Source: Terriglobia bacterium (GTDB lineage Bacteria > Acidobacteriota > Terriglobia > UBA7540). From it: 64,000 nt of DNA. The translations under genes were made by a program, and so were the position numbers. The notes below the pieces were generated by a model. It saw nothing but the letters and a program-made list of their open reading frames with translations, had not been told where the DNA came from and made no database searches. This document shows, piece by piece, positions 14,629-64,000 of this stretch. Position 1 is the stretch's first letter; the number at the start of each line of letters is the position of its first letter. Location of the stretch: positions 14,649 to 78,648 of the forward strand of contig JBEKME010000016.1 of NCBI GenBank assembly GCA_050008675.1, written 5' to 3'.

Positions 14629-14648
14629 ATTGAGCCCCCCTGGGCACT

Positions 14649-14808
14649 GGTGTCATTTGCGGCACCCGTGCGTTACAAGTCGCAGTCATTCCCGCGAAAG
14701 CGGGAATCCAGTCCCTCGGCAGCGCATTTCCGAAGGTTTGCGGAGTGGATTCCCGCTTTCGCGGGAATGACCGGCGTTTCGAAAGGGATGCCAGCCCAAC
14801 GTCATCAA
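14649..14808. mobile_element. MITE-like element, copy 1 (right end degenerate)
   Basis: Starts with GGTGTCATTTG. Contains two ATTCCCGC-GAAA-GCGGGAAT hairpin modules at about 14688..14710 and 14747..14770. It shares this architecture with the other copies listed below. Confidence 0.7.
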
Positions 14809-16816: not shown

Positions 16817-16884
16817 TTCAGGGCGCAGGTGGGGCCGCTTGGCCCGCCGCGGCAACGACCCACCGCCTGTCAGGAGGCAGTGCT

Positions 16885-17027
16885 GGTGTCATTTGGAACG
16901 GTGATCCACTCGATCCGCCGGTCATTCCCGCGAAAGCGGGAATCTACTCGGCAAAGCTTCGGAAACGCGCTGTCGACGGAGTGGATTCCCGCTTTCGCGG
17001 GAATGACTGGGTCTCGCAAATGACACC
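16885..17027. mobile_element. MITE-like element, copy 2
   Basis: Terminal inverted repeats GGTGTCATTTG ... CAAATGACACC, with two ATTCCCGC-GAAA-GCGGGAAT hairpin modules inside. Confidence 0.8.
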
Positions 17028-48041: not shown

Positions 48042-48310
48042 GATGACCTCCGCAGCAGATTCGATATCTTGGTAAAGAAGTCAGGCCCGGGCTCAAGGCG
48101 CCTGACGGGAATTCTCCCCACACTCGAAACGCAAGAAACCAAGTCCTCCGGTCTCGCAACCCGAGCGAATGCATGGGCAGCGCCTCATAGTAACAATCTG
48201 GAATGAAAGGTTCAAGACCAAAATGTCCAATCGGGGCCTCCCATATGCGCGACAGCATACGCCTGCCCCCCTCTCGATTCAAGCCCAAATTAGGGTGGCC
48301 TCTGGGTAGC

Positions 48311-48468
48311 TGTGTCAGTTGGAATCGGATCCCTTTCGAAACAGCGGTCATTCCCGCGAAGGCGGGAATCCAGTCCGTCGGCGACGCAATTCCAATGGCT
48401 TGCGGAGTAGATTCCCGCCTTCGCGGGAATGACTGCACCTGGGAGCGCCTGTGTCTAGCAAATGACAC
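48311..48468. mobile_element. MITE-like element, copy 3
   Basis: TGTGTCAGTTGG ... GCAAATGACAC termini, with two ATTCCCGC-GAAG/CTTC-GCGGGAAT modules. Confidence 0.75.
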
Positions 48469-48581
48469 TACTACTGGCCTCTGCTTTTGCCTCTGCTTTT
48501 GCTTGACTTGCTCAGCCGGAGGGGCTAGACTTGCCAATTCTGGGCACCCTACGGGCTTGGTCAGCCGAGGGCCTTTGCGTG

Positions 48582-50393
48582 ATGACCCAAGTCCAACGAT
48601 TGCTCGCTTTTCTAAAGCCGTACTCCTTCCGCTTCCTGGTCGCATTCATTTTGATGGCCTTGGTGGGGGCTTGTGAGGCGCTGACAGCGTTACTCATCAA
48701 GCCGGTCTTTGACCGTGTTCTTGCTCCGGGTACCGACGCGGGCAAAATTGTCTTGTTCCAATGGCCCTTCGGAGGGCAGGCGATATACCTCCAGACTTTT
48801 TTCCCGGCTTGGATCCACAATGCATGGACCATTGTGGCGATTTCGATCGTTTCGGTGACCCTGATCAAAGGGGTTGCTGAGTTTCTGGCAACCTACTTCA
48901 TCAACTTCATCGGCCATTCTGTGGTAAGGGACCTTCGGAATCTTCTCTATTCGAGGATTATCCAACAGTCGATGGCCTTTTTTACCAGGACTTCCACGGG
49001 GCGGCTGATGTCAGCGGTCACCAGTGATATTGAGAGAATTCAGTATGCCGTCTCGCAGACTGCCGCAGACTTCCTGAAGCAAAGTTTTACGCTGGCGGGG
49101 CTGCTCGGCGTTCTGTTTTATGTCGACTGGCGGCTGGCATTAGGCTCGCTGATCCTGGTGCCCTTGGTGGTGTTTCCATCCCACAATATCGGGCGCTACA
49201 TTCGCATTTCGAGCCGTTCCAGCCAGGACAAGATGGCAGAGTTGAACAACGTCCTTCAGGAGACCTTCTCAGGAATCCGCATTGTTAAGGCCTTTGGCAT
49301 GGAATTGTACGAGGTGGAGAAGTTCAAGGCGGCCACGCGGCGGCTGCTGCGCGTCAGTCTGCGCTGGGTGCGGGCGCAGGCAGCGACCTCCCCGATCATG
49401 GAAGTCCTGGGCGCCATCACCGTCGCCGGTCTTCTGCTTTACGCCCGCACGGAGATCATGCACCACGCGCAGACCACCGGAGGGTTTGTGGCTTTCCTGT
49501 ATGCCCTGATTAAGACCTACGAGCCCATTAAGCGGCTCACGGGAGTCCATAACGCCTACGAGCAGGCCCTGGGCGCCTCGGAGCAAGTCTTCCACTATCT
49601 CGACATTCATCCGGATATTCACGACGAGCCGGGGGCATCACGGTTGCCACTCTTCGAGCGTGAAATTGAGTTCGAAAACGTGGATTTCGATTACGAAGAG
49701 GCGTTGCCGTTGCTGCGCGACATCAACCTGCGAATCCGCAAGGGTGAGGTGATGGCAATTGTGGGCTCAAGTGGCGCAGGAAAGACCACGCTCGCCAGTC
49801 TCATTCCCAGGTTTTTTGATGTGACGGGAGGCCGAATTCTGATTGACGGCCATGATGTTAGGGGCGTAAAGGTCAACTCACTCCGCGCTCAGATCGGTAT
49901 CGTCACACAGGAAACGATTCTGTTCAACGATACCGTGTACAATAACATCTGTTACGGGAGCCAGCCTGCCGGCGAGGAGGCCGTGAGGGAGGCCGCGCGC
50001 GCCGCCTTGGCTGAAGACTTCATCCTGGAGATGCCCGAGGGCTACCAGACGGTGATCGGAGAGCGTGGGCAGCGTCTTTCCGGGGGGCAGCGGCAACGAA
50101 TTGCCATCGCGCGCGCGCTTCTCAAGAATCCACCTATTCTCATTCTGGACGAAGCTACTTCGGAACTCGACACAGAATCGGAACTCCTCGTTCAAAGGGC
50201 GCTGGCGAACCTGATGAGGGGCCGCACGGTGCTGGTGATTGCTCATCGCCTTTCCACCGTGCGTCGCGCGGAACGGATTATTGTCCTCGACCGCGGCATC
50301 ATCAGTGAGGTCGGGAGCCATGAAGACTTGATGAGCCGGGGGGGTATGTACCAGAAGCTGCACGATCTCCAATTCGTGGACGCGGAACCATAG
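48582..50393 (+). CDS. ABC transporter permease/ATPase, MsbA-like lipid exporter
   Basis: Six-TM N-terminal domain. Walker A GSSGAGKTT, signature LSGGQRQRIAIARA, Walker B ILILDEATS. Start at the ATG at 48582. Confidence 0.9.
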   Translation: MTQVQRLLAFLKPYSFRFLVAFILMALVGACEALTALLIKPVFDRVLAPGTDAGKIVLFQWPFGGQAIYLQTFFPAWIHNAWTIVAISIVSVTLIKGVAEFLATYFINFIGHSVVRDLRNLLYSRIIQQSMAFFTRTSTGRLMSAVTSDIERIQYAVSQTAADFLKQSFTLAGLLGVLFYVDWRLALGSLILVPLVVFPSHNIGRYIRISSRSSQDKMAELNNVLQETFSGIRIVKAFGMELYEVEKFKAATRRLLRVSLRWVRAQAATSPIMEVLGAITVAGLLLYARTEIMHHAQTTGGFVAFLYALIKTYEPIKRLTGVHNAYEQALGASEQVFHYLDIHPDIHDEPGASRLPLFEREIEFENVDFDYEEALPLLRDINLRIRKGEVMAIVGSSGAGKTTLASLIPRFFDVTGGRILIDGHDVRGVKVNSLRAQIGIVTQETILFNDTVYNNICYGSQPAGEEAVREAARAALAEDFILEMPEGYQTVIGERGQRLSGGQRQRIAIARALLKNPPILILDEATSELDTESELLVQRALANLMRGRTVLVIAHRLSTVRRAERIIVLDRGIISEVGSHEDLMSRGGMYQKLHDLQFVDAEP

Positions 50394-53810: not shown

Positions 53811-54764
53811 ATGGACGAGCGCTTACGGCAGGAGCTTGCCAATTGGCTCGAGTTCTACCGCGAATTGGGCATTGAGGAATTCTATCGGCGTGCGCCCGGG
53901 TCCGGCGGCCTCTCACCCGTTACGGGTCATCGCAGAATTGCAGATTCAGCAGCGAGCGGCGGGACGCCCCCAGTGGTCGCGACGAAGCCGGCTTTAACTG
54001 AAACCAAGCCTGTCGTCAGTCCCACCGCGCCTCTTCCCTCACCTCCCGCCCGAGCTTCCCAAACCGTAGTCGTTGCGCCGCCCGTCAGTCCCACCGCGCC
54101 TCTTCCGCTGCCCCGCGCCGGGGCTTCCCAAACCGCAGTCGTTGCGGCGCCAATCAGGCCGCCCGCACCCTCCTTGAGTCTCTTCGAAACGCCGCCGCCA
54201 AAGCCAAGTGGGCCCGAAACCTTGGAGCAAATCCGCGCGGACTTGGGGGATTGCCACCGCTGCAAGCTGGCGGGCGGCCGCCACACCATAGTTTTCGGGG
54301 AAGGCAATCCTCACGCGGAATTGGTGTTTGTTGGAGAAGGTCCGGGGGCCGACGAAGACGAGCAGGGGCGGCCGTTCGTAGGGCGCGCCGGCCAACTTCT
54401 GAACCGCATGATCCAAATGATCGAGATGAAACGCGAAGAGGTCTACATCTGCAATGTCGTCAAGTGCCGTCCCCCCGGAAACCGCACCCCGGAGAAGGAC
54501 GAGATCGAAACGTGCTCACCATTCCTTTTTCGCCAACTTGAAGCCATGAAGCCCCGTTTGATTTGTTGCCTCGGGGCGCCCGCGGTGAGGACTGTTTTGG
54601 GGATTAAGGAAGGCATCACTAAAATACACGGCCAGTTCTACGATTTCGCCACTTCGAAAGCACTCGCCACAGTTCACCCTGCCTACGTTCTTCGCAATGC
54701 CCGGGAGGAGAAGATTCTCCGCGAAGACTTCGAAAAGATCCGGGAGTTCCTGAAGGGAAAATGA
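53811..54764 (+). CDS. family 4 uracil-DNA glycosylase with a Pro-rich repetitive N-terminal extension
   Basis: GDCHRCKL Cys cluster, [43 protein letters not shown]. Confidence 0.85.
54015..54152 (+). repeat. 69-bp tandem duplication (2 copies) inside the udg N-terminal extension
   Basis: 54015..54083 and 54084..54152 both start GTCAGTCCCACCGCGCCTCTTCC and end TTCCCAAACCGYAGTCGTTGCG. They encode VSPTAPLP...ASQT(V/A)VVA twice. Confidence 0.85.
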
Positions 54765-54802
54765 GCAGCAGTAGAAGGTGCGCTGATCCCGAAATCGGTA
54801 CT

Positions 54803-54972
54803 GGTGTCATTTGCGAGACATGGGCGCTCGAAGCCGCAGTCATTCCCGCGAAAGCGGGAATCTACTCGGCAAACCTTCGGAAATTCGCCGTCGACGGACT
54901 GGATTCCCGCTTTCGCGGGAATGACTGCCTTCACAGGGCCGCACGAAAAATCAACTTCCCCCAAATGACATC
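54803..54972. mobile_element. MITE-like element, copy 4
   Basis: GGTGTCATTTGCGAGACATGGGCGCTCGAAGCCGCAGTCATTCCCGCGAAAGCGGGAATC ... CAAATGACATC. Its first ~60 nt are nearly identical to copy 5. Confidence 0.8.
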
Positions 54973-56593: not shown

Positions 56594-56651
56594 GGGTGGG
56601 AGCAGAAAGGATGCAAAAGACCGAAGGCAATGTCAAGCGCCGCAAGGCACT

Positions 56652-56810
56652 GATGTCATTTGCGAGACATGGGCGCTCGAAGTCGCAGTCATTCCCGCGA
56701 AAGCGGGAATCCACTCCCCAAACCCTCGCAAATAAGCTATCGACCGACTGGATTCCCGCTTTCGCGGGAATGACCTGCGTTTCAAAAGGAATCCCATCCT
56801 AAATGACACC
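56652..56810. mobile_element. MITE-like element, copy 5
   Basis: GATGTCATTTGCGAGACATGGGCGCTCGAAGTCGCAGTCATTCCCGCGAAAGCGGGAATC ... TAAATGACACC. Confidence 0.8.
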
Positions 56811-56880
56811 AACACCTGCCCCAGATGAAAGTCCGGAATGCCTTCCCTCCTGGTTCAATGCGCCAAAGGGGCTGAGGGCT

Positions 56881-57182: not shown

Positions 57183-58424
57183 CTAACCTCCGAACACCAC
57201 CTTCACAGGTGGGCGCGTGCCAATCCGGAAGATCACCACAGGGTATTGACGGGGATCGAAATCCCACGTTGGGTCGGTGAGTCGTTTCCAGTCAGGTTGC
57301 TTCGAGTCACCGACCGCCATGTAGACAGCGCCTTCCTTGATCTTTCGCTGGGCTTCAGAGTTTGAAGGGAAAAGCTTCAGATCCACGAGTAAGCGAAAGA
57401 GCTTTCGCGTTGTCGCAAGCTGAAAGGGAATTTGCTCAATCACCGACGGCAGGCCCTTGTCCCTGAATTGGGCTTCGAAGTCTCGCTGAGCTTGGGCTGC
57501 CGCTTCGGCGTCGTGGAAATCCGTGATGATGCGGCGGGCCAGAGATTTCTTGACCTCTAGCGGATGGAGGTTGCCCGAAGCAACTGCCTTGTTAAGCTCC
57601 TCGATCTGCGCCGGCGTCATATCCGTTAGGAGCAGGTAATACCGCCACATCAAGTCATCGGAAATTGACATCAGCTTGCCGAACATTTCGGCGGGCGCCT
57701 CGTTGATCCCAACGTAATTGCCCAGTGACTTCGACATTTTCTGGACGCCGTCGAGTCCCTCGAGAATCGGCATGGTCATGATGACCTGCGGTTCCTGTCC
57801 GTACTCCTGCTGGATCGTGCGCCCGACCAGCAGATTGAATTTCTGGTCGGTCCCGCCCAACTCTACATCCGCTTCGAGCGCAACGGAGTCGTAGGCTTGA
57901 GCCAGGGGATAGAGAAGCTCGTGGATGGCGATGGGGCGCTGCTCCTTGAAGCGTTTCGAGAAGTCATCACGCTCCAGAATTCGCGCCACAGTGTACTTGG
58001 AGCAGAGCGTGATCCAATCTCGCCCCGTGAGCTTGCCCAGCCAGCGGCTGTTGAAGTCCACCACGGTCTTTTCCGCATGGAGAATCTTGAAGACCTGTTT
58101 CTTGTAGGTCTCGGCGTTGGCAGCCACCTGCTCTGGCGTTATCGGCTTGCGCGTCACGTTCTGCCCGGACGGGTCGCCAATCAGGCCGGTGAAGTCGCCA
58201 ATGAGAAAGATGACCGTGTGACCGAGATCCTGGAAGTGTTTCATCTTGCGAATCACGACCGTGTGGCCGAGATGAATGTCCGGAGCCGTGGGGTCAAAAC
58301 CCACTTTGACGCGGAGCGGCTCCCCAGTCTGGGCCGAGCGCTCGAGCTTGGCCCTAAGCTCTTCCACGCGGATAGTCTCCTCCGCGCCCTTAGTGAGGTA
58401 AGCAAGTTGTTCGTCTATGTTCAC
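57183..58424 (-). CDS. tyrS: tyrosine--tRNA ligase
   Basis: [13 protein letters not shown] (HIGH), KMSKS, and a C-terminal S4-like domain. Confidence 0.95.
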
Positions 58425-58638
58425 GGTGCCCGTAGGATTCCTCTTGAGAGTGAAAGTCCAAAAAGGAATGATACCCGGTGAGCGGTGCTTTGGGGAGAAA
58501 ACTTCACAAGATACGGGCTCCTCGTGGTTTGCGTGCGGGCGGAGTCTCCGGCGTAGGCCATTACGGTTTGGCCCTCTAGCTCCGGCTCCAGACGCTTTGC
58601 AAAATTGGATGTGTTAACGGGTATGAACGCCTGTACCA

Positions 58639-59586
58639 TTAATGGGATGAAAACTTAAAGGCACCTTGATCTTCGCCAACCGTGTCTTTGGATTTCTTCT
58701 TGGACCTGAAGCAAAGACGGCCAAATCGCTCCAATGTGTCACCCCTCTGGCGCTTGTACCTGATCGTGTAGTGCCCGCTGCCGTCGCTTGTTGCCAGCTT
58801 AAACCCAACCAATGCGTCAAGTGCCTCTATGACCCACGCTTTCTTCGGAATCTCGGGGCTCCGCGAACCAGAACTTGGAAACCCATAATACTTCTGAAGG
58901 TCAGTGGTTACTTGGTCAGCGGACAGCTTGAGCAGGGTAATTTCGGCCTCAGATTCGAAATTACCAATGGCGACATATTCCGTGAAAAGGTTGTCCCACA
59001 GGATCTGCAGCGTAATGGGGAGAGCCGGCGGGGAATCCAAAAATTTTCTGTCACCATACAGCTCGATCAATAGCTTTATATTTACCTGTTTCCCATAACG
59101 CAATCGCCTGTCAAGTTCCAGGTCAGAGAGTTCGCCTCCCTCTTTCTTTAAGAGCATCCAAGTCTTGTTGGGCCCTACTTGCTGTTGGAAACCCAGGGTT
59201 GCGAGCTTGCGTTTGAAGCTCCATTTCTTCTGCCCAGCCCCCTCATTGACTAGATCGGAGAACTGGACCGAACGAAGCAACGGAACCAAACTTACGAGAT
59301 CATGGTTGTTCACCCGCTCATTACTTGTCCACCATCCCTTGAGGTCGTCGTCATATTTCTGAAGCTGGCGGATATCATCGTCCCAGTGTGCCACGTCAAG
59401 CGGCAAGCCTTTCTTGGCCTCAGCGACTAGCCCATGCGTCGGTGACTGCTGAACTACACAGTCTGGGGTGACATCCGTTATTGGGCGGATTTGGTTCTCG
59501 GAGGATGTAGTCATTTTTCGCCCAAGGTCATAAGCAACTTCAGGGCGCAGCTGGCGGGCAATAGGATCCCAACGAACCTCGTTCAC
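58639..59586 (-). CDS. hypothetical protein with a PD-(D/E)xK nuclease motif
   Basis: 315 aa, GTG start. VTPDCVVQQSPTHGLVAEAKKG gives D-x13-E-x-K. Basic C-terminus YKRQRGDTLERFGRLCFRSKKKSK. Lower GC than its surroundings. Confidence 0.5.
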   Translation of the reverse strand: MNEVRWDPIARQLRPEVAYDLGRKMTTSSENQIRPITDVTPDCVVQQSPTHGLVAEAKKGLPLDVAHWDDDIRQLQKYDDDLKGWWTSNERVNNHDLVSLVPLLRSVQFSDLVNEGAGQKKWSFKRKLATLGFQQQVGPNKTWMLLKKEGGELSDLELDRRLRYGKQVNIKLLIELYGDRKFLDSPPALPITLQILWDNLFTEYVAIGNFESEAEITLLKLSADQVTTDLQKYYGFPSSGSRSPEIPKKAWVIEALDALVGFKLATSDGSGHYTIRYKRQRGDTLERFGRLCFRSKKKSKDTVGEDQGAFKFSSH

Positions 59587-59656
59587 GAAGGCCAGGATGG
59601 CGTATAGGGCCTGCGTGTAGTCATCCAGGGCCTCTTTTGTCTTACCGTGGTCATAC

Positions 59657-60778
59657 TTAGACTGGTTGTGGGAAGCCAGAGATGGTACCCTCGCGAAAAT
59701 TCTCGAAAATGTGATTGACGATCCTCTTCAGCGCGTTTTCAGAGGTCCTCACTTGGGGAACAATCAGTATCTGCTTCGGTGAGAGGACCCAAACCTCAAC
59801 AGTTGAATAGTCTTTGTTATCCACAACCGAAACGTGCAAATATGGATTCGAATGTAAAACAGAACAACTGCCGTATTTGAATCTTTTCAGCGCATCGGAA
59901 AGTCTCCTGGTTTCATCAATCCTGGCCAATATATCGTTCTCGTAATCTATGGTGACGGGTTTTGGGATGTGATCCGAAGTACTGACCCGATCACGATTGG
60001 AGAAGAACTCGAGACGCGTGCCAGCGATCTCCATGAGCCTGTTTGCCACGATAGTTGTGTAAAGATCAAAGTCGTCGTTGCAGGCGAGGTAGCCATACTT
60101 CGAGATTATCCCTTTGCTGGTTGCGTACAGCCTGCCGTCTTCCCTGCGATTGACAATCTCAAAAGTTACGGACTGGAACCACTGATTCGCTTGCCTAGCC
60201 TCACGAAAGACGGACTCGACCCCCTCATCTGTCCACTCACGCGTGCTCTGGAAACGTTTTCGAGCTTCCCCACGAAGCCGCTTGCGCGCCGACAGTTCAA
60301 GAATCCGTATCCCGGCTGCCGCTTGCGCCTTCTGGACTTGCTTCAAGATTTCGTAAAGCTCAAGTTGGGTTAAGAAGGGGGCAGCGACCTTTGGGTACAA
60401 GGACTCAATCAAGGGCGATATTGCCATTCTCCAGTATGTTCGTGCGGAAACGAACATAACTAGATAAATCGCTGGAAGTGCTGTGCGAAAAAGTGCGAAT
60501 TGCCCAGCAAATTTCCGATCGCTAATAGCACGCGAGTAGAAGAAGAGCCCACCGGCATTACCTCCCTGCAGAAACCTCAAACCCGCTGGGGCCCTCGGCG
60601 ACTGCAAATGGCTCAGCAAATCTTCTCTGGACCCCACCAGGGCGAGTTGCAGGTATTCGTTTTCACCCAGTCTAAGGCTCGAGAGCACTGGAGCTACCCG
60701 TTCCCAGGGTCCTCCCACCGCGGCCGCAAGCAGTCCATTGCGGCTAACGTCCAACAACGGCAAGGGTTTGCGTTTCAT
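59657..60778 (-). CDS. hypothetical protein, no recognisable domain
   Basis: 373-aa ORF, co-oriented with and 70 nt upstream of the PD-(D/E)xK gene. One hydrophobic stretch (FALFRTALPAIYLVMFVSA). No P-loop and no methyltransferase motif. Confidence 0.5.
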   Translation of the reverse strand: MKRKPLPLLDVSRNGLLAAAVGGPWERVAPVLSSLRLGENEYLQLALVGSREDLLSHLQSPRAPAGLRFLQGGNAGGLFFYSRAISDRKFAGQFALFRTALPAIYLVMFVSARTYWRMAISPLIESLYPKVAAPFLTQLELYEILKQVQKAQAAAGIRILELSARKRLRGEARKRFQSTREWTDEGVESVFREARQANQWFQSVTFEIVNRREDGRLYATSKGIISKYGYLACNDDFDLYTTIVANRLMEIAGTRLEFFSNRDRVSTSDHIPKPVTIDYENDILARIDETRRLSDALKRFKYGSCSVLHSNPYLHVSVVDNKDYSTVEVWVLSPKQILIVPQVRTSENALKRIVNHIFENFREGTISGFPQPV

Positions 60779-60926
60779 AAGACGAGCGAAAGGCCATTGG
60801 GCTTTTCCGCGACTCTACACTTTAGTGTGCGCCAAGCGGGATGCAAGTGTCAAACCTTCAGCAGTTCACGGGTAACAGACATGCCCCATGTTCCGCGACG
60901 TGTGAACCCACGGCGCCTTATTGATA

Positions 60927-63788
60927 TCACTCCGCCACAGAGAACTCCAGCTTGTTTTCCGACCGGTCGATGCGGACCAAGCACACGCGGGTTCGTTCCC
61001 CGAGGCGAAAGGCGCGCTTCGAGTGCTGGCCGATGATGGCGCGCAGGCGTTCGTGATAGACGTAAGAATCGTCGCCGAGGTTGGAGAGCGGGACGAAGCC
61101 CTCCACGAAGAGGTCCGTCAGTTCCACGAAAAACCCTTGCTTGATCAGGCCGATGATGAGCGCCTCAAACTCATCGCCTACGTGCTGCGCCATAAAGGAG
61201 ACTTTCTTCCATTCCATCAGCTCGCGCTCGGCTTCGGCAGCGTGGCGCTCCGATTCGGAGGTTTCAAGCCCCAGGGCGTGCAATTCCTCGGGATGCACGA
61301 ACGCCGCGCCAGGTAGCTGTGGCGCGGGCGTCTCGCCCGCTGTCGCGCGGGCGTCCCGCTCGCGCACCGGGTTCGCGGGAGCGCGGAGTCCTTCCCCTCG
61401 AATCCTGTTGCCGATTCCCTGTTCCCTATTCCCTGTTCCCTGTTCCCTGATCGTGCGCGCACTGCCTCCCTCCTGCGCGAGCGCGGCCTTCAAAATCCGG
61501 TGCACGATCAAATCCGGATAGCGGCGGATGGGCGAAGTGAAATGAGTATAGGTGGGCGCGGCCAGGGCGAAGTGGCCGACGTTTTCCTCCGAGTAGCGGG
61601 CCTGCTTGAGCGAGCGCAGCATCAGGTAGGAAAGAATCCGTTCCTCAGGCTTGCCCTCGAGGCGCTGGGCAAGCCGCTGGTAGTTGTATGGACTGATCTT
61701 GAGCTCGCCCTCGAAAGCTTCGTGAAAGCGCGGGTAGCGGTCGCGCTCGTCGCGAAGCCGCAATCGAGCGCGCCGCGCGGGGGGCAACTCGATGCCCAGC
61801 GAGTAGCCGAAGGTGGCGGCAATCTCCTCGAACTCAATCACTTTTTTCACGTCGGGCTTCTCGTGGATGCGGTAAAGCGAGGGAATGCCTTTGCCCTCCA
61901 GGTATGACGCCACGGCCTCGTTCGCCGCCAGCATGAACTCCTCGATGATGCGGTGGGCGAAGTTGCGCTCCGAGCGCGTAATGCCGGTCATGCGGCCATG
62001 CTCGTCAAACTCGATTTCAGGTTCGGGGAGATCGAAGTCAATCGAGCCGCGGTCCTCGCGGCGGCGAGCGAGGAGGCGCGCCAATTCTTCCATCAGCTTG
62101 AAGTTCGGGATCAGGGCAGCGTAGCGCTGGCAGGCGGCGGGCTCGCCGGCGAGAATGTCGCGCACGGCGGTGTAGGTCATGCGCTCGGCGCTGCGGATGA
62201 TTCCGGGCAGGAGTTCGTATTCCACCAAGCGTCCCTCGGGATCGAATTCCAGCAACGCGGACATCACCAGCCGGTCCACGTGGGGGTTCAGACTACAGAT
62301 GCCGCTGGAAAGCTCCAGAGGCAGCATGGGGACGGCGCGGTCGGGGAAATAGACGCTGGTGCCCCGCAGGCGCGCTTCACGGTCGAGCGCCGAGCCCGGC
62401 CGGACGTAGTGGGCCACGTCGGCGATGTGAACGTGAAGCAGGTAATTGCCCCAGGCCAGTCGCTCCACGTACACGGCGTCGTCAAAATCCTTGGCCGTCT
62501 CGCCGTCAATGGTGACGATGGGCAGGCCGCGAAAGTCGCGGCGGTCCCGCAGAGCGGGATCGCGCTCGGGGATGTACTGTGGCGCGGCGCTCGCCTCCGC
62601 CACCACGTCGGGCGGAAAACGATGCGGCAGGTGGAACTTGCGGATCATGATTTCCACGTCCACGCCGAACTCCTCACGGCGGCCCAGGACCTCGAGCACG
62701 CGCCCGCGCGGCAGGGCGGCGGGACGAGGGTAGGTGGTGATTTCGACGTCCACAATCAGCTCGTCGAGGTCGCGGGCATTCTGCCGGCGAGACGCCGGCG
62801 CTACCGCAGAGCGTCCCTCGGATTCCCCACCGAATTGGCGGTGGCGGCTAAGCGTCCCCGGGGAAATTAGCCCCCCTCTCTCCCTTGGGGGAGAGGGGCC
62901 GGGGGTGAGGGGGTCCCGCGTAGGAACCACCTGCATTGGATTAACTCCCTCAGAAAGCGTCGGGATGGCCGTTGGTTCCACACTCTCCTGTGCCGGGCCG
63001 ACCTGTGCCGGTGGTTTCGGATAGCCTGCCTCTACGTCAGGGAATTCCTGGCCATGCGGAATGACAATCTCGAAGGGAATTCGCTGGTCGAACGGCATCA
63101 CGTAGTTGTATTGCGGCCCGCAGTGGAATTGGCCCACCACGGTCTTCTGCGCGCGCTCGGTGACTAGAATGACGCGGCCTTCCATCCGGGCTTCGCCCTT
63201 AAAGCTCTTGGTGGACCGCTGCACATGCACTTCCACGCGGTCGCCGTGCAAGGCTGAACCCATGCCATCCGGCGGAATGAAGATGTCGAGGTCGGTGCCC
63301 GCCAGCGGAACGTCCGGCACGACGAAGCCGTAGCCGACGCGGTGTCCGATCAAGCGGCCACTCACGAAGTTGGTGGCACAGGCTCTCAGCCTGTGCAGAC
63401 CATCGGCGTCGCGACTCACGAAATTGGGCGATTTCGAAACGTGCGCAGGGGGAATGCTTCGTAGGGGCACGCCATGGCGTGCCCCTACTTCATTGGGGGA
63501 TTTCGAGGTTTGTAGCGGCGGTGTCTGACCGCCGCGGCTGCGGTCAGACACCGCCGCTACAGCTTCCGACGCGGCGTGGCGGCCCTTGTGGACCAAGGCA
63601 TAGTGATTTTTCTTCAGGTAGACAAGTTTCCTGCCGCGGGCGAGGTCTTTCAGAACGCTTTTCAACTCCCGCGCCTGGCTCGAGCGCAACCCCAGCTCGA
63701 GCACCAGCTCGCGCAGACGGAAAGTTCGCTGCGGGTCCCGCTCGAAGAGTTTGAGGATTTCCTGCGGCGAGGGAAATTCGAGCATCAA
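60927..63788 (-). CDS. rnr: ribonuclease R with three repeat-derived in-frame insertions
   Basis: N-terminal HTH (LRELVLELGL), GHRVGYGFVVPD cold-shock-like segment, RNB motifs FDDAVYVE and HVHIADVAHYV, RYPDLIVHR, and a C-terminal S1 domain (GDEFEALIIGLIKQGFFVEL). At 953 aa it is longer than the 700-830 aa I recall as typical. Confidence 0.9.
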   Translation of the reverse strand: MMLEFPSPQEILKLFERDPQRTFRLRELVLELGLRSSQARELKSVLKDLARGRKLVYLKKNHYALVHKGRHAASEAVAAVSDRSRGGQTPPLQTSKSPNEVGARHGVPLRSIPPAHVSKSPNFVSRDADGLHRLRACATNFVSGRLIGHRVGYGFVVPDVPLAGTDLDIFIPPDGMGSALHGDRVEVHVQRSTKSFKGEARMEGRVILVTERAQKTVVGQFHCGPQYNYVMPFDQRIPFEIVIPHGQEFPDVEAGYPKPPAQVGPAQESVEPTAIPTLSEGVNPMQVVPTRDPLTPGPSPPRERGGLISPGTLSRHRQFGGESEGRSAVAPASRRQNARDLDELIVDVEITTYPRPAALPRGRVLEVLGRREEFGVDVEIMIRKFHLPHRFPPDVVAEASAAPQYIPERDPALRDRRDFRGLPIVTIDGETAKDFDDAVYVERLAWGNYLLHVHIADVAHYVRPGSALDREARLRGTSVYFPDRAVPMLPLELSSGICSLNPHVDRLVMSALLEFDPEGRLVEYELLPGIIRSAERMTYTAVRDILAGEPAACQRYAALIPNFKLMEELARLLARRREDRGSIDFDLPEPEIEFDEHGRMTGITRSERNFAHRIIEEFMLAANEAVASYLEGKGIPSLYRIHEKPDVKKVIEFEEIAATFGYSLGIELPPARRARLRLRDERDRYPRFHEAFEGELKISPYNYQRLAQRLEGKPEERILSYLMLRSLKQARYSEENVGHFALAAPTYTHFTSPIRRYPDLIVHRILKAALAQEGGSARTIREQGTGNREQGIGNRIRGEGLRAPANPVRERDARATAGETPAPQLPGAAFVHPEELHALGLETSESERHAAEAERELMEWKKVSFMAQHVGDEFEALIIGLIKQGFFVELTDLFVEGFVPLSNLGDDSYVYHERLRAIIGQHSKRAFRLGERTRVCLVRIDRSENKLEFSVAE
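61413..61449. repeat. TTCCCTGT octamer array inside rnr
   Basis: GATTCCCTGTTCCCTATTCCCTGTTCCCTGTTCCCTG, translated as EQGTGNREQGIGNR. Confidence 0.85.
62871..62913. repeat. palindromic REP-like element inside rnr
   Basis: CCCCCCTCTCTCCCTTGGGGGAGAGGGGCCGGGGGTGAGGGGG, translated as PLTPGPSPPRERGG. Confidence 0.85.
63461..63488. repeat. perfect 28-nt palindrome GTAGGGGCACGC-CATG-GCGTGCCCCTAC inside rnr
   Basis: Read directly. Flanked by 15-nt direct repeats ATTGGG(C/G)GATTTCGA at 63423..63437 and 63492..63506. Confidence 0.9.
63511..63561. repeat. perfect 22-bp inverted repeat inside rnr
   Basis: TGTAGCGGCGGTGTCTGACCGC (63511..63532), a 7-nt loop, then GCGGTCAGACACCGCCGCTACA (63540..63561). 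Confidence 0.9.
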
Positions 63789-64000
63789 GTCTCCTCAGCT
63801 AGTTTACCACCCCATGCCCCTCTTGCCCGCCCGCACTCGCCACAATCCATTGTCCTGCCGACTAAGTACCTGTATTTTCAACAACATATCCGCTTTATAG
63901 GGCTAAGTGCCTTTGTTTTCAGTAGAGTCGGGGTTGGGCGCGGTTGCGACGCGGACGTCGTCCCGTTTCCCGTCCCCGCTCATCGAACCGGACGTGCGGA

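Follow-up and report, generated by a model that had tools for sequence, protein, structure and literature searches.

Proteins in which a PD-(D/E)xK nuclease domain is fused to a winged helix, such as DpnI, FcyTI and Psp4BI, are type IV restriction enzymes and need no methyltransferase (PMC11037411), and RexA, RdgC, Iml3 and Chl4 are built on one common DNA-binding fold, with RexA binding DNA non-specifically (PMC11077077). Here, we describe two adjacent genes, termed A and B, that lie between rnr and tyrS in a soil Acidobacterium (Terriglobia). The window that we analysed is a 64,000-nt stretch of contig JBEKME010000016.1 (assembly GCA_050008675.1, positions 14,649 to 78,648), and an original prediction, made from the letters of this window alone, had singled out the two genes as a candidate undescribed defence or nuclease system. 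We find that A and B constitute a real, new two-gene family, in which neither protein matches a known sequence family.

That the two genes form a unit is evident from their linkage elsewhere: of 57 loci drawn from metagenomic, genomic, viral and plasmid sequences, 54 have B directly downstream of A in the same orientation, down to 25% identity and with a gap of -19 to about +60 nt in most, only decayed remnants being left in the other three (L003/L004 and L137). This pairing holds at 20-30% identity, as in the Neomarinimicrobiota metagenome-assembled genome (MAG) L143, the Thermoanaerobaculia MAG L144, and L145 and L146, and extends to plasmids of Natrinema (L147), Haloarcula marismortui (pNG100; L148) and Arthrobacter (L149). 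In tblastn searches of cultured phages and plasmids, A matched seven plasmids and B matched nothing; the gene downstream of the plasmid copies of A was recognised as a remote B by a local hidden Markov model search (E between 1e-11 and 1e-15; the set searched was small). The B family comprises at least 588 representative clusters (50% identity) at E <= 1e-3, of which 293 remain at E <= 1e-30, and these clusters, almost all of 330-360 aa and matched over their full length, span Acidobacteriota, Neomarinimicrobiota, Actinomycetota and haloarchaea. We found 53 homologues of A. Overall, the pair occurs in both Bacteria and Archaea and is carried by chromosomes, plasmids and prophage-like contigs, with two phage-like contigs among the linked loci. 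One 4.9-kb metagenomic contig bears two divergent A-B pairs in convergent orientation (L138:17-1264 and L138:3600-4826). In another locus (L007:7682-9812), the pair adjoins smpB, with BrnT/BrnA toxin-antitoxin genes nearby, and frameshifts split both genes, such that this copy is either pseudogenised or affected by a nanopore assembly error. A conserved third gene was considered and dismissed, the ORFs of about 310 aa downstream of the pair in L001 and L010 being unrelated.

Pfam, NCBIfam, PADLOC and PDB sequences were searched with the single proteins and with profiles of 26, 52 and 132 sequences. No family of PADLOC-DB v2.0.0, which includes Shedu, Kiwa, Hachiman, Gabija and the PDC candidates, was matched by A or B at E <= 1, in keeping with the earlier impression that the pair resembles none of the four named systems. 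Likewise, A has no Pfam match at E <= 1, RdgC and RexA included, and the A and B families carry neither a Pfam label nor an informative name. Matches to SpvB (E 0.038, cut-off 1133 bits) and eS17 (E 0.17) were set aside as noise. Both proteins, of which A could not be assigned to a named family by eye, match no PADLOC, Pfam or NCBIfam model and no PDB sequence. Nor does either belong, by sequence, to a characterised family with a role other than defence, the match of A to RdgC described below being at the level of the fold only.

A foreign insertion between rnr and tyrS

The cassette occupies positions 58505..60930, without an assigned strand, its boundaries having been set by homology against L012, the closest syntenic relative. 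Upstream lies rnr, encoding RNase R (60927..63788, minus strand; Pfam RNB, E 4.1e-113, with CSD2, OB_RNB and S1), and downstream lies tyrS (57183..58424, minus strand; Pfam tRNA-synt_1b, E 1.5e-78), so that the two core genes named as flanks in the original prediction are upheld by Pfam. The positions that it gave for the two ORFs are likewise correct (58639..59586 and 59657..60778), and both ORFs are read from the minus strand. The insert has a G+C content (GC) of 52.0%, compared with a mean of 58.3% (sd 1.5, minimum 54.1) for other windows of the same size, none of which, among 567, is as low; similarly, GC at third codon positions is 0.575 in gene A and 0.599 in gene B, as against 0.727 in tyrS and 0.776 in rnr. 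The foreign composition claimed for the insert is real by both measures, and the hand counts offered for it (49 G+C in 59701-59800 and 65 in 50001-50100) were exact.

In L012 (83% nucleotide identity, with a TyrS 88% identical in amino acids) the cassette is absent: rnr and tyrS are spaced by about 180 nt, with only a terminator hairpin between them, and homology to the window ends at 60931 and resumes at 58504, the cassette standing in place of about 100 nt. Two closer populations, L094 (91% nucleotide identity) and L098 (85%), carry the cassette at the same site. The content of the rnr-tyrS interval is thus variable among relatives, and the cassette is shown to be a foreign insertion. Its edges bear no flanking direct or inverted repeats, integrase, att-like duplication, tRNA, tmRNA or Rfam match; the short repeats D5 and D16 were examined as possible marks of a mobile element and rejected, as neither continues into a longer repeat and no alignment exists between the two flanks. 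At the downstream edge, ahead of the tyrS promoter region, a consensus scan found a weak terminator-like hairpin with a T-run (58505..58526, minus strand), which is a candidate only, such sites being no more numerous than in shuffled sequence. Neither the ORF list nor Pfam revealed a methyltransferase within the insert and, as had been argued, the pair is not a classical type II restriction-modification (R-M) pair, there being no adjacent cognate methyltransferase.

Between the window and L094, synonymous divergence (dS) is 0.09 for gene A (59660-60778 against L094:8433-9551) and 0.375 for the adjacent 3' part of rnr. This roughly fourfold difference argues that the two lineages have had the cassette in common for a shorter time than the sequence beside it, a hint that related lineages exchanged it recently. 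The ratio of nonsynonymous to synonymous divergence (dN/dS) is 0.10-0.25 for gene A and 0.26 for gene B, which places both genes under purifying selection. A of L094 is 95% identical to that of the window, while the L094 RNase R shows an amino acid identity of only 78%; the suspicion that this rnr was too divergent to stand beside such an A was dropped once the low identity had been traced to its variable N-terminus, and the difference in dS stays. The N-terminal region of RNase R (953 aa) is itself unusually long, and the 5' third of rnr (62850-63790 of the window) contains indels between close relatives, with patches of 82-85% nucleotide identity compared with 91% elsewhere.

Two repeats were noted elsewhere in the window. 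Five copies of a near-palindromic intergenic repeat of 130-156 nt (14643-14782, 16879-17019, 48305-48474, 54797-54928 and 56646-56815) are 63-90% identical and match themselves both directly and in inverted orientation. This repeat looks like a REP or MITE element and is the source of the strings '...ICETWALE.AVIPAKAGI...' and '...IPAFAGMT...' that recur in spurious ORFs; its nearest copy lies about 370 nt past the 3' end of tyrS, and the cassette is not flanked by copies. In addition, a GC-rich unit of 69 nt is duplicated in tandem at 54014-54151, the two copies being 86% identical.

The extended reading frame of gene B

Gene B was originally taken to start at a GTG at 59586 and to be separated from A by 70 nt. 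However, compared with the called ORF (58639..59586), its homologues are longer at the N-terminus by about 30-45 residues, and the called ORF turns out to hold only the 3' 315 codons of the gene. Ahead of this GTG, and in the same frame, the window encodes the conserved N-terminal segment, KYDHGKTKEALDDYTQALYAILAFVNE; the in-frame segment there contains ...SKYDHGKTKEALDDYTQALYAILAFVNE..., and the frame is open back into the 3' end of A. The extended B was aligned from residues 1-9 in nearly all loci by tblastn, and matches in an exhaustive profile search begin at profile positions 2-10. Together, the conserved in-frame N-terminus and the homologues that align from the start make B a protein of about 346 aa (346 codons plus stop, 58639..59679, minus strand), so that the supposed gap is coding and the final 23 nt or so of A also belong to B.

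The in-frame extension upstream of the GTG contains no ATG, GTG or TTG. Its likely start, judging from the aligned A/B junctions, is a non-canonical CTG at 59679: in the 13 relatives compared (L001, L005, L008, L010, L095-L099, L103, L116, L126 and L145), the codon at this position is CTG in ten, as in the window, TTG in two and GTG in one, and in the window and all 13 relatives it follows (G)AGGG by 7-9 nt. In the window, this Shine-Dalgarno-like GAGGG (59688..59692, minus strand) lies 8 nt upstream of the CTG and is made by the ...FREG codons of A, whose residues E363 and G364, which supply it, are at least 85% conserved. Alternatively, B may start from an ATT at 59700; some relatives also have an in-frame TTG about ten codons upstream. 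The position of the GAGGG within the end of A, just ahead of the start of B, implies that B is probably translationally coupled to A. A frameshift fusion of A to B was considered and judged unlikely, given that, where relatives have GTG or TTG, the codon coincides with the aligned start and is preceded by a Shine-Dalgarno sequence. Public gene calls shorten B, to 255 aa in P0001 and 330 aa in P0002. With many members apparently starting at CTG, gene callers would truncate B systematically, such that databases under-represent the true protein.

Predicted structures and conserved residues of A and B

The AlphaFold2 model of B scores 89.2 in predicted local distance difference test (pLDDT) and 0.85 in predicted TM-score (pTM). 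Its N-terminal domain, a predicted PD-(D/E)xK nuclease core (about residues 1-215; 59035..59679, minus strand), was delimited from the secondary structure that DSSP assigned to the model: alpha1 11-36, beta 49-51, beta 74-79, beta 82-88, alpha 100-109 and beta 126-133. This order is that of the canonical alpha-beta-beta-beta-alpha-beta core, and in the predicted structure D73 opens the second strand, while E87-x-K89 is part of the third. An alignment of 132 sequences, 24-48% identical to the window protein, yielded the putative catalytic motifs T71-P72-D73, E87-x-K89 and Q105-xxx-Y109-D110 (59353..59469, minus strand). Only P72, D73, Y109 and W116 are invariant in this alignment, and T71, G83, E87, K89 and D110 are at least 90% conserved. 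The D-x13-E-x-K string noticed at the outset is therefore present and deeply conserved, falling on the most conserved columns of the family, and the full pattern D..ExK..QxxxY occurs in 109 of 131 members. In nucleases of the RecB, Cas4 and lambda-Exo type, QxxxY accompanies the D/ExK motif. Judged from this alignment and the modelled core, B is probably a PD-(D/E)xK nuclease.

The C-terminal region of B (about residues 220-335; 58675..59022, minus strand) consists, by secondary structure and Foldseek, of two helix/beta-hairpin modules and a long basic helix. Local Foldseek matches to this region include the winged helix of Cdt1 (prob 0.84, TMt 0.50), the cullin WHB domain (prob 0.69, TMt 0.60) and the winged helix-turn-helix domains of GntR, PadR and CRP/CooA, so that the modelled modules resemble winged-helix DNA-binding domains. 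What had been described as a basic tail of B is, for the most part, a confidently predicted C-terminal helix (315-335) following the winged-helix region, with only residues 335-346 disordered.

Gene A (59657..60778, minus strand) encodes 373 aa that form three alpha/beta modules, as seen from the ORF, its 53 homologues and an AlphaFold2 model (pLDDT 90.1, pTM 0.88). Its best structural match is RdgC (2owl), with a Foldseek probability of 1.00 and an E-value of 2.2e-4 over 310 aligned columns, at a TM of only 0.30/0.36; other matches are the N-terminal TBP-like domains of RnlA (prob 0.95-0.98), Iml3, CENP-L and CENP-N, and one domain matches prokaryotic AdoMetDC. As modelled, A is a member of the fold class that contains RdgC, RexA, the N-terminal part of RnlA and Iml3. 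The single hydrophobic stretch remarked on in A was tried as a membrane segment and rejected: in the model it forms buried core beta-strands (88-98 and 104-111, pLDDT about 96).

Among the 53 homologues of A, which reach down to 20% identity, residues P129, T183, R262, P274, H309, N311, P312, Y313, H315, D320, D323, S325 and P341 are at least 95% conserved. By our count, nine of the residues conserved to this degree lie in a tight polar cluster from H309 to S325 in domain 3, and the signature H309-x-N311-P-Y313-x-H315...D320-x-x-D323-x-S325 (59804..59854, minus strand) is invariant in the alignment of 52 sequences. From this conservation, the signature is possibly a catalytic, metal-binding, ligand-binding or B-binding site. 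A second feature of A is a basic flexible loop, R167-L-R-G-E-A-R-K174 (60257..60280, minus strand), inside ...SARKRLRGEARKRFQS..., in which R167, R173 and K174 are conserved. It is the sole low-confidence stretch inside the model (pLDDT 61-69) and a candidate DNA-contacting element.

Possible functions and relation to known systems

We scanned 252 neighbouring ORFs from about 30 loci of the pair with PADLOC, following up the matches, and 141 ORFs around tyrS in nine other Acidobacteriota loci as a control. Type I HsdM and HsdS genes lie about 560 nt downstream of the pair in L112, and a full HsdM-HsdS-HsdR-A-B array is present in L146; in L114, a DruE-like protein of 1973 aa is encoded 2.3 kb from the pair, and in L106 a BrxH/SngC-like helicase is encoded immediately upstream. 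The IMG/VR contig L093 has a methyltransferase and a helicase immediately upstream of the pair, the likely source of type III R-M matches, and tail genes downstream, and in L092 a large terminase gene (phrog_15, E 5.6e-120) is situated 70 nt away. Methyltransferases occur only as parts of separate neighbouring R-M systems (L093, L112 and L146). The control loci contained only a generic sigma-54 activator and two marginal matches; a PADLOC match to 'RtcR' near the pair is to a generic activator of the same kind and was discounted because it is also found in the controls. An enrichment of the pair near defence genes is suggestive.

The core idea of the original prediction is plausible, and three of the four outcomes that it named as refuting did not occur: A and B do lie together elsewhere, the interval does differ among relatives, and neither protein falls by sequence into a characterised non-defence family. 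The role of the pair may be immunity, addiction or both, with defence as our working hypothesis, and we see about an even chance that it provides DNA-targeting defence against phages or plasmids, possibly combined with addiction. A and B would then form a self-contained, horizontally mobile two-gene operon, with B translated in a coupled manner after A. In this scheme, B would be the effector, carrying an N-terminal RecB-like PD-(D/E)xK nuclease (PD, ExK and QxxxY) and tethered to DNA by its two C-terminal winged-helix-like modules, and A, of the RdgC/RexA fold, would bind DNA as a sensor, clamp or regulator, acting through its basic loop and its conserved His/Asp/Asn/Tyr/Ser pocket. The two proteins could assemble into a stoichiometric complex, in which A would permit B to act on DNA that is invading or abnormal, or else hold B inactive on self DNA. 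In favour of this reading we count the foreign and variable nature of the cassette, the near-invariable pairing, the purifying selection, the motifs and modelled core of B, the fold that A has in common with RexA of lambda Rex exclusion, the defence and phage genes near some copies, and the precedent of type IV enzymes in which a nuclease is joined to a winged helix. In its full form, as an undescribed and widespread immune system in which an RdgC/RexA-fold sensor or clamp with a His/Asp pocket controls a RecB-like tandem-winged-helix nuclease, this proposal is tentative and rather less probable than a defence role as such.

Several observations weigh against a DNA-targeting defence role. A whole-chain Foldseek search with B returned nothing at E <= 1e-3 (best matches 0.029 in PDB and 0.007 in BFVD), probably because B is a multi-domain protein. 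PD-(D/E)xK nucleases nevertheless recur in both libraries, which favours B as a nuclease: they account for about nine of the top 50 PDB matches and about seven of the top 50 BFVD matches, all of them weak (E >= 0.05, prob <= 0.38); the weak matches include DpnI, BsaXI, PaqCI, SduA, YaeQ, a cap-snatching endonuclease, exonuclease VIII (RecE-like) and viral PD-(D/E)XK proteins. Of the restriction-endonuclease fold ascribed to B, then, the predicted core and motifs fit, and a significant fold match is wanting. Profile searches with B against PDB sequences and Pfam were empty and provide no significant tie to a characterised nuclease, apart from marginal matches of single family members to HSDR_N (0.0028) and RE_TdeIII (0.0077), which speak for the nuclease assignment. 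In the remote B of the Arthrobacter plasmid, PD, the Glu and QxxxY are retained and the Lys is missing, whereas in the haloarchaeal copies hardly more than TPD is left; with the catalytic motif partly lost in plasmid copies, nuclease activity would not be universal in the superfamily. As for A, hhalign of its family against E. coli RdgC and RnlA gave probabilities of 0.1% and 0.6%, respectively, which places A in neither family. Furthermore, about 80% of loci have only housekeeping neighbours around the pair, and known defence genes lie near it in about 5 of 31 independent loci, compared with 0-1 of the 9 controls, numbers that are too few for significance. On plasmids, the pair is found beside ParA (Natrinema), beside ParB/RepB (Arthrobacter) or at the coordinate origin (pNG100). 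Lying so close to partition genes or the record origin, the pair would seem to serve maintenance or addiction and not immunity, and the plasmid placement as such fits an addiction or maintenance role as well as it fits defence.

The most serious competitor is an addiction or stabilisation module resembling a toxin-antitoxin system, with B as a DNA-nuclease toxin and the co-translated A as its inhibitor: loss of the locus or plasmid would release B, and any protection against phages would come as a by-product, as happens in abortive infection. The partner that would restrain the nuclease is encoded upstream of it, overlapping and translationally coupled, and an intact orphan B was not seen, the sole B without A being an N-terminally truncated remnant (L003/L004). 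The neighbouring ParA and ParB/RepB genes on plasmids would suit such a module, as would solitary copies among housekeeping genes or beside other toxin-antitoxin genes (BrnT/BrnA in L007 and PIN in L001), and A has a fold in common with the N-terminal domains of the RnlA toxin-antitoxin system. However, both proteins are large (346 and 373 aa) and A has a deeply conserved polar pocket, features that are atypical of a simple antitoxin, and neither Pfam nor the AlphaFold2 model of A gives it a helix-turn-helix autoregulator domain; moreover, several loci group the pair with R-M or Druantia-like genes or place it in prophage cargo positions. We consider this explanation unlikely.

It is decidedly improbable, in our view, that A and B form an accessory module for DNA repair or recombination, in which an RdgC-like modulator would cooperate with a RecB-family nuclease in processing DNA ends or branched intermediates. 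The top structural match of A is to a recombination-associated DNA-binding ring, RdgC (PMC11077077), and the neighbours are mostly housekeeping genes. The D/ExK/QxxxY set of B, typical of the RecB, Cas4 and lambda-Exo family, would also suit this role. However, the pair is patchily distributed, foreign in composition and absent from the closest syntenic relative, with a dS below that of its flank, and occurs on plasmids and phage-like contigs; no examined locus associates it with rec, ruv or SOS genes, and A has no sequence-level relationship to RdgC. The least credible explanation, to which we give very little weight, makes the pair part of the machinery of a mobile element, devoted to replication initiation or to site-specific cutting for integration, with the tandem winged helices of B serving as an origin binder of the iteron-Rep or ORC type. 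Weak fold matches of the C-terminus of B to the winged helices of Cdt1, MCM and ORC, as well as to a crAss-like 'replication protein', are consistent with it, as is the position of the pair by partition genes or the coordinate origin on the three plasmids. Nevertheless, in the window and in most loci the pair stands alone in 2.4 kb, unaccompanied by repeats, att sites or a gene for an integrase or transposase, the search for iterons and terminal repeats was negative, and the cassette is stably inherited at one chromosomal site in three populations.

Should A and B be a sensor-nuclease immune system, they would amount to a soluble, nuclease-effector analogue of lambda Rex exclusion, bringing two new protein families and a new sensor-effector logic, and would tie the RdgC/RexA DNA-binding fold to the control of a nuclease. 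Such a system would also make it practicable to study how the state of DNA is read by sensors of the Rex kind, which for lambda Rex is still an open question after decades. As an immune or addiction system of whatever kind, the pair would add two unannotated protein families to the catalogue, and were its role to be plasmid maintenance, the family would be no less new and its architecture unusual for such a module.

Each of the described systems closest to the pair resembles it in part. Like DpnI-type enzymes, B has an N-terminal PD-(D/E)xK domain followed by one or more winged-helix modules, and DpnI is among its weak fold matches; unlike them, it carries a pair of winged-helix-like modules, exceeds them in length by about 100 aa and always comes with a partner of 370 aa (54 of 57 loci), whereas DpnI-type enzymes act as single polypeptides, and neither B nor any of 132 family members matches Pfam DpnI or DpnI_C. 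With RecB, Cas4 and lambda-Exo, B has in common D ... (D/E)xK ... QxxxY on a predicted alpha-beta-beta-beta-alpha-beta core, but it lacks Fe-S cysteines and a helicase or SSAP partner, and has no profile or significant structural match to them. Shedu (SduA, DUF4263) is likewise a mobile, methyltransferase-independent system with a PD-(D/E)xK effector, and SduA (8ps5) is among the weak matches of B, but Shedu is a single-gene system with another domain order.

The likeness of A to RdgC is one of fold, as detected by Foldseek, and does not extend to sequence or profile. RexA, the sensor half of a two-gene phage-exclusion system, has its fold class in common with A, but is partnered by the membrane protein RexB, whereas the partner of A is a soluble predicted nuclease without membrane segments. 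In the anti-T4 system RnlAB, RnlA (like LsoA) is similar to A in its repeated N-terminal alpha/beta domains of the TBP-like type, and both systems are mobile two-gene modules; however, A lacks the helical HEPN-like domain, its third domain is beta-rich in the AlphaFold2 model, its sequence has no similarity to RnlA or LsoA, and its partner is a predicted nuclease of 346 aa rather than a small antitoxin. What distinguishes A from RdgC, RexA and Iml3-Chl4 alike is this third domain, with its conserved His/Asp pocket. Cumulatively, these comparisons present the pair as a new sequence family within the familiar theme of nuclease-effector conflict systems.

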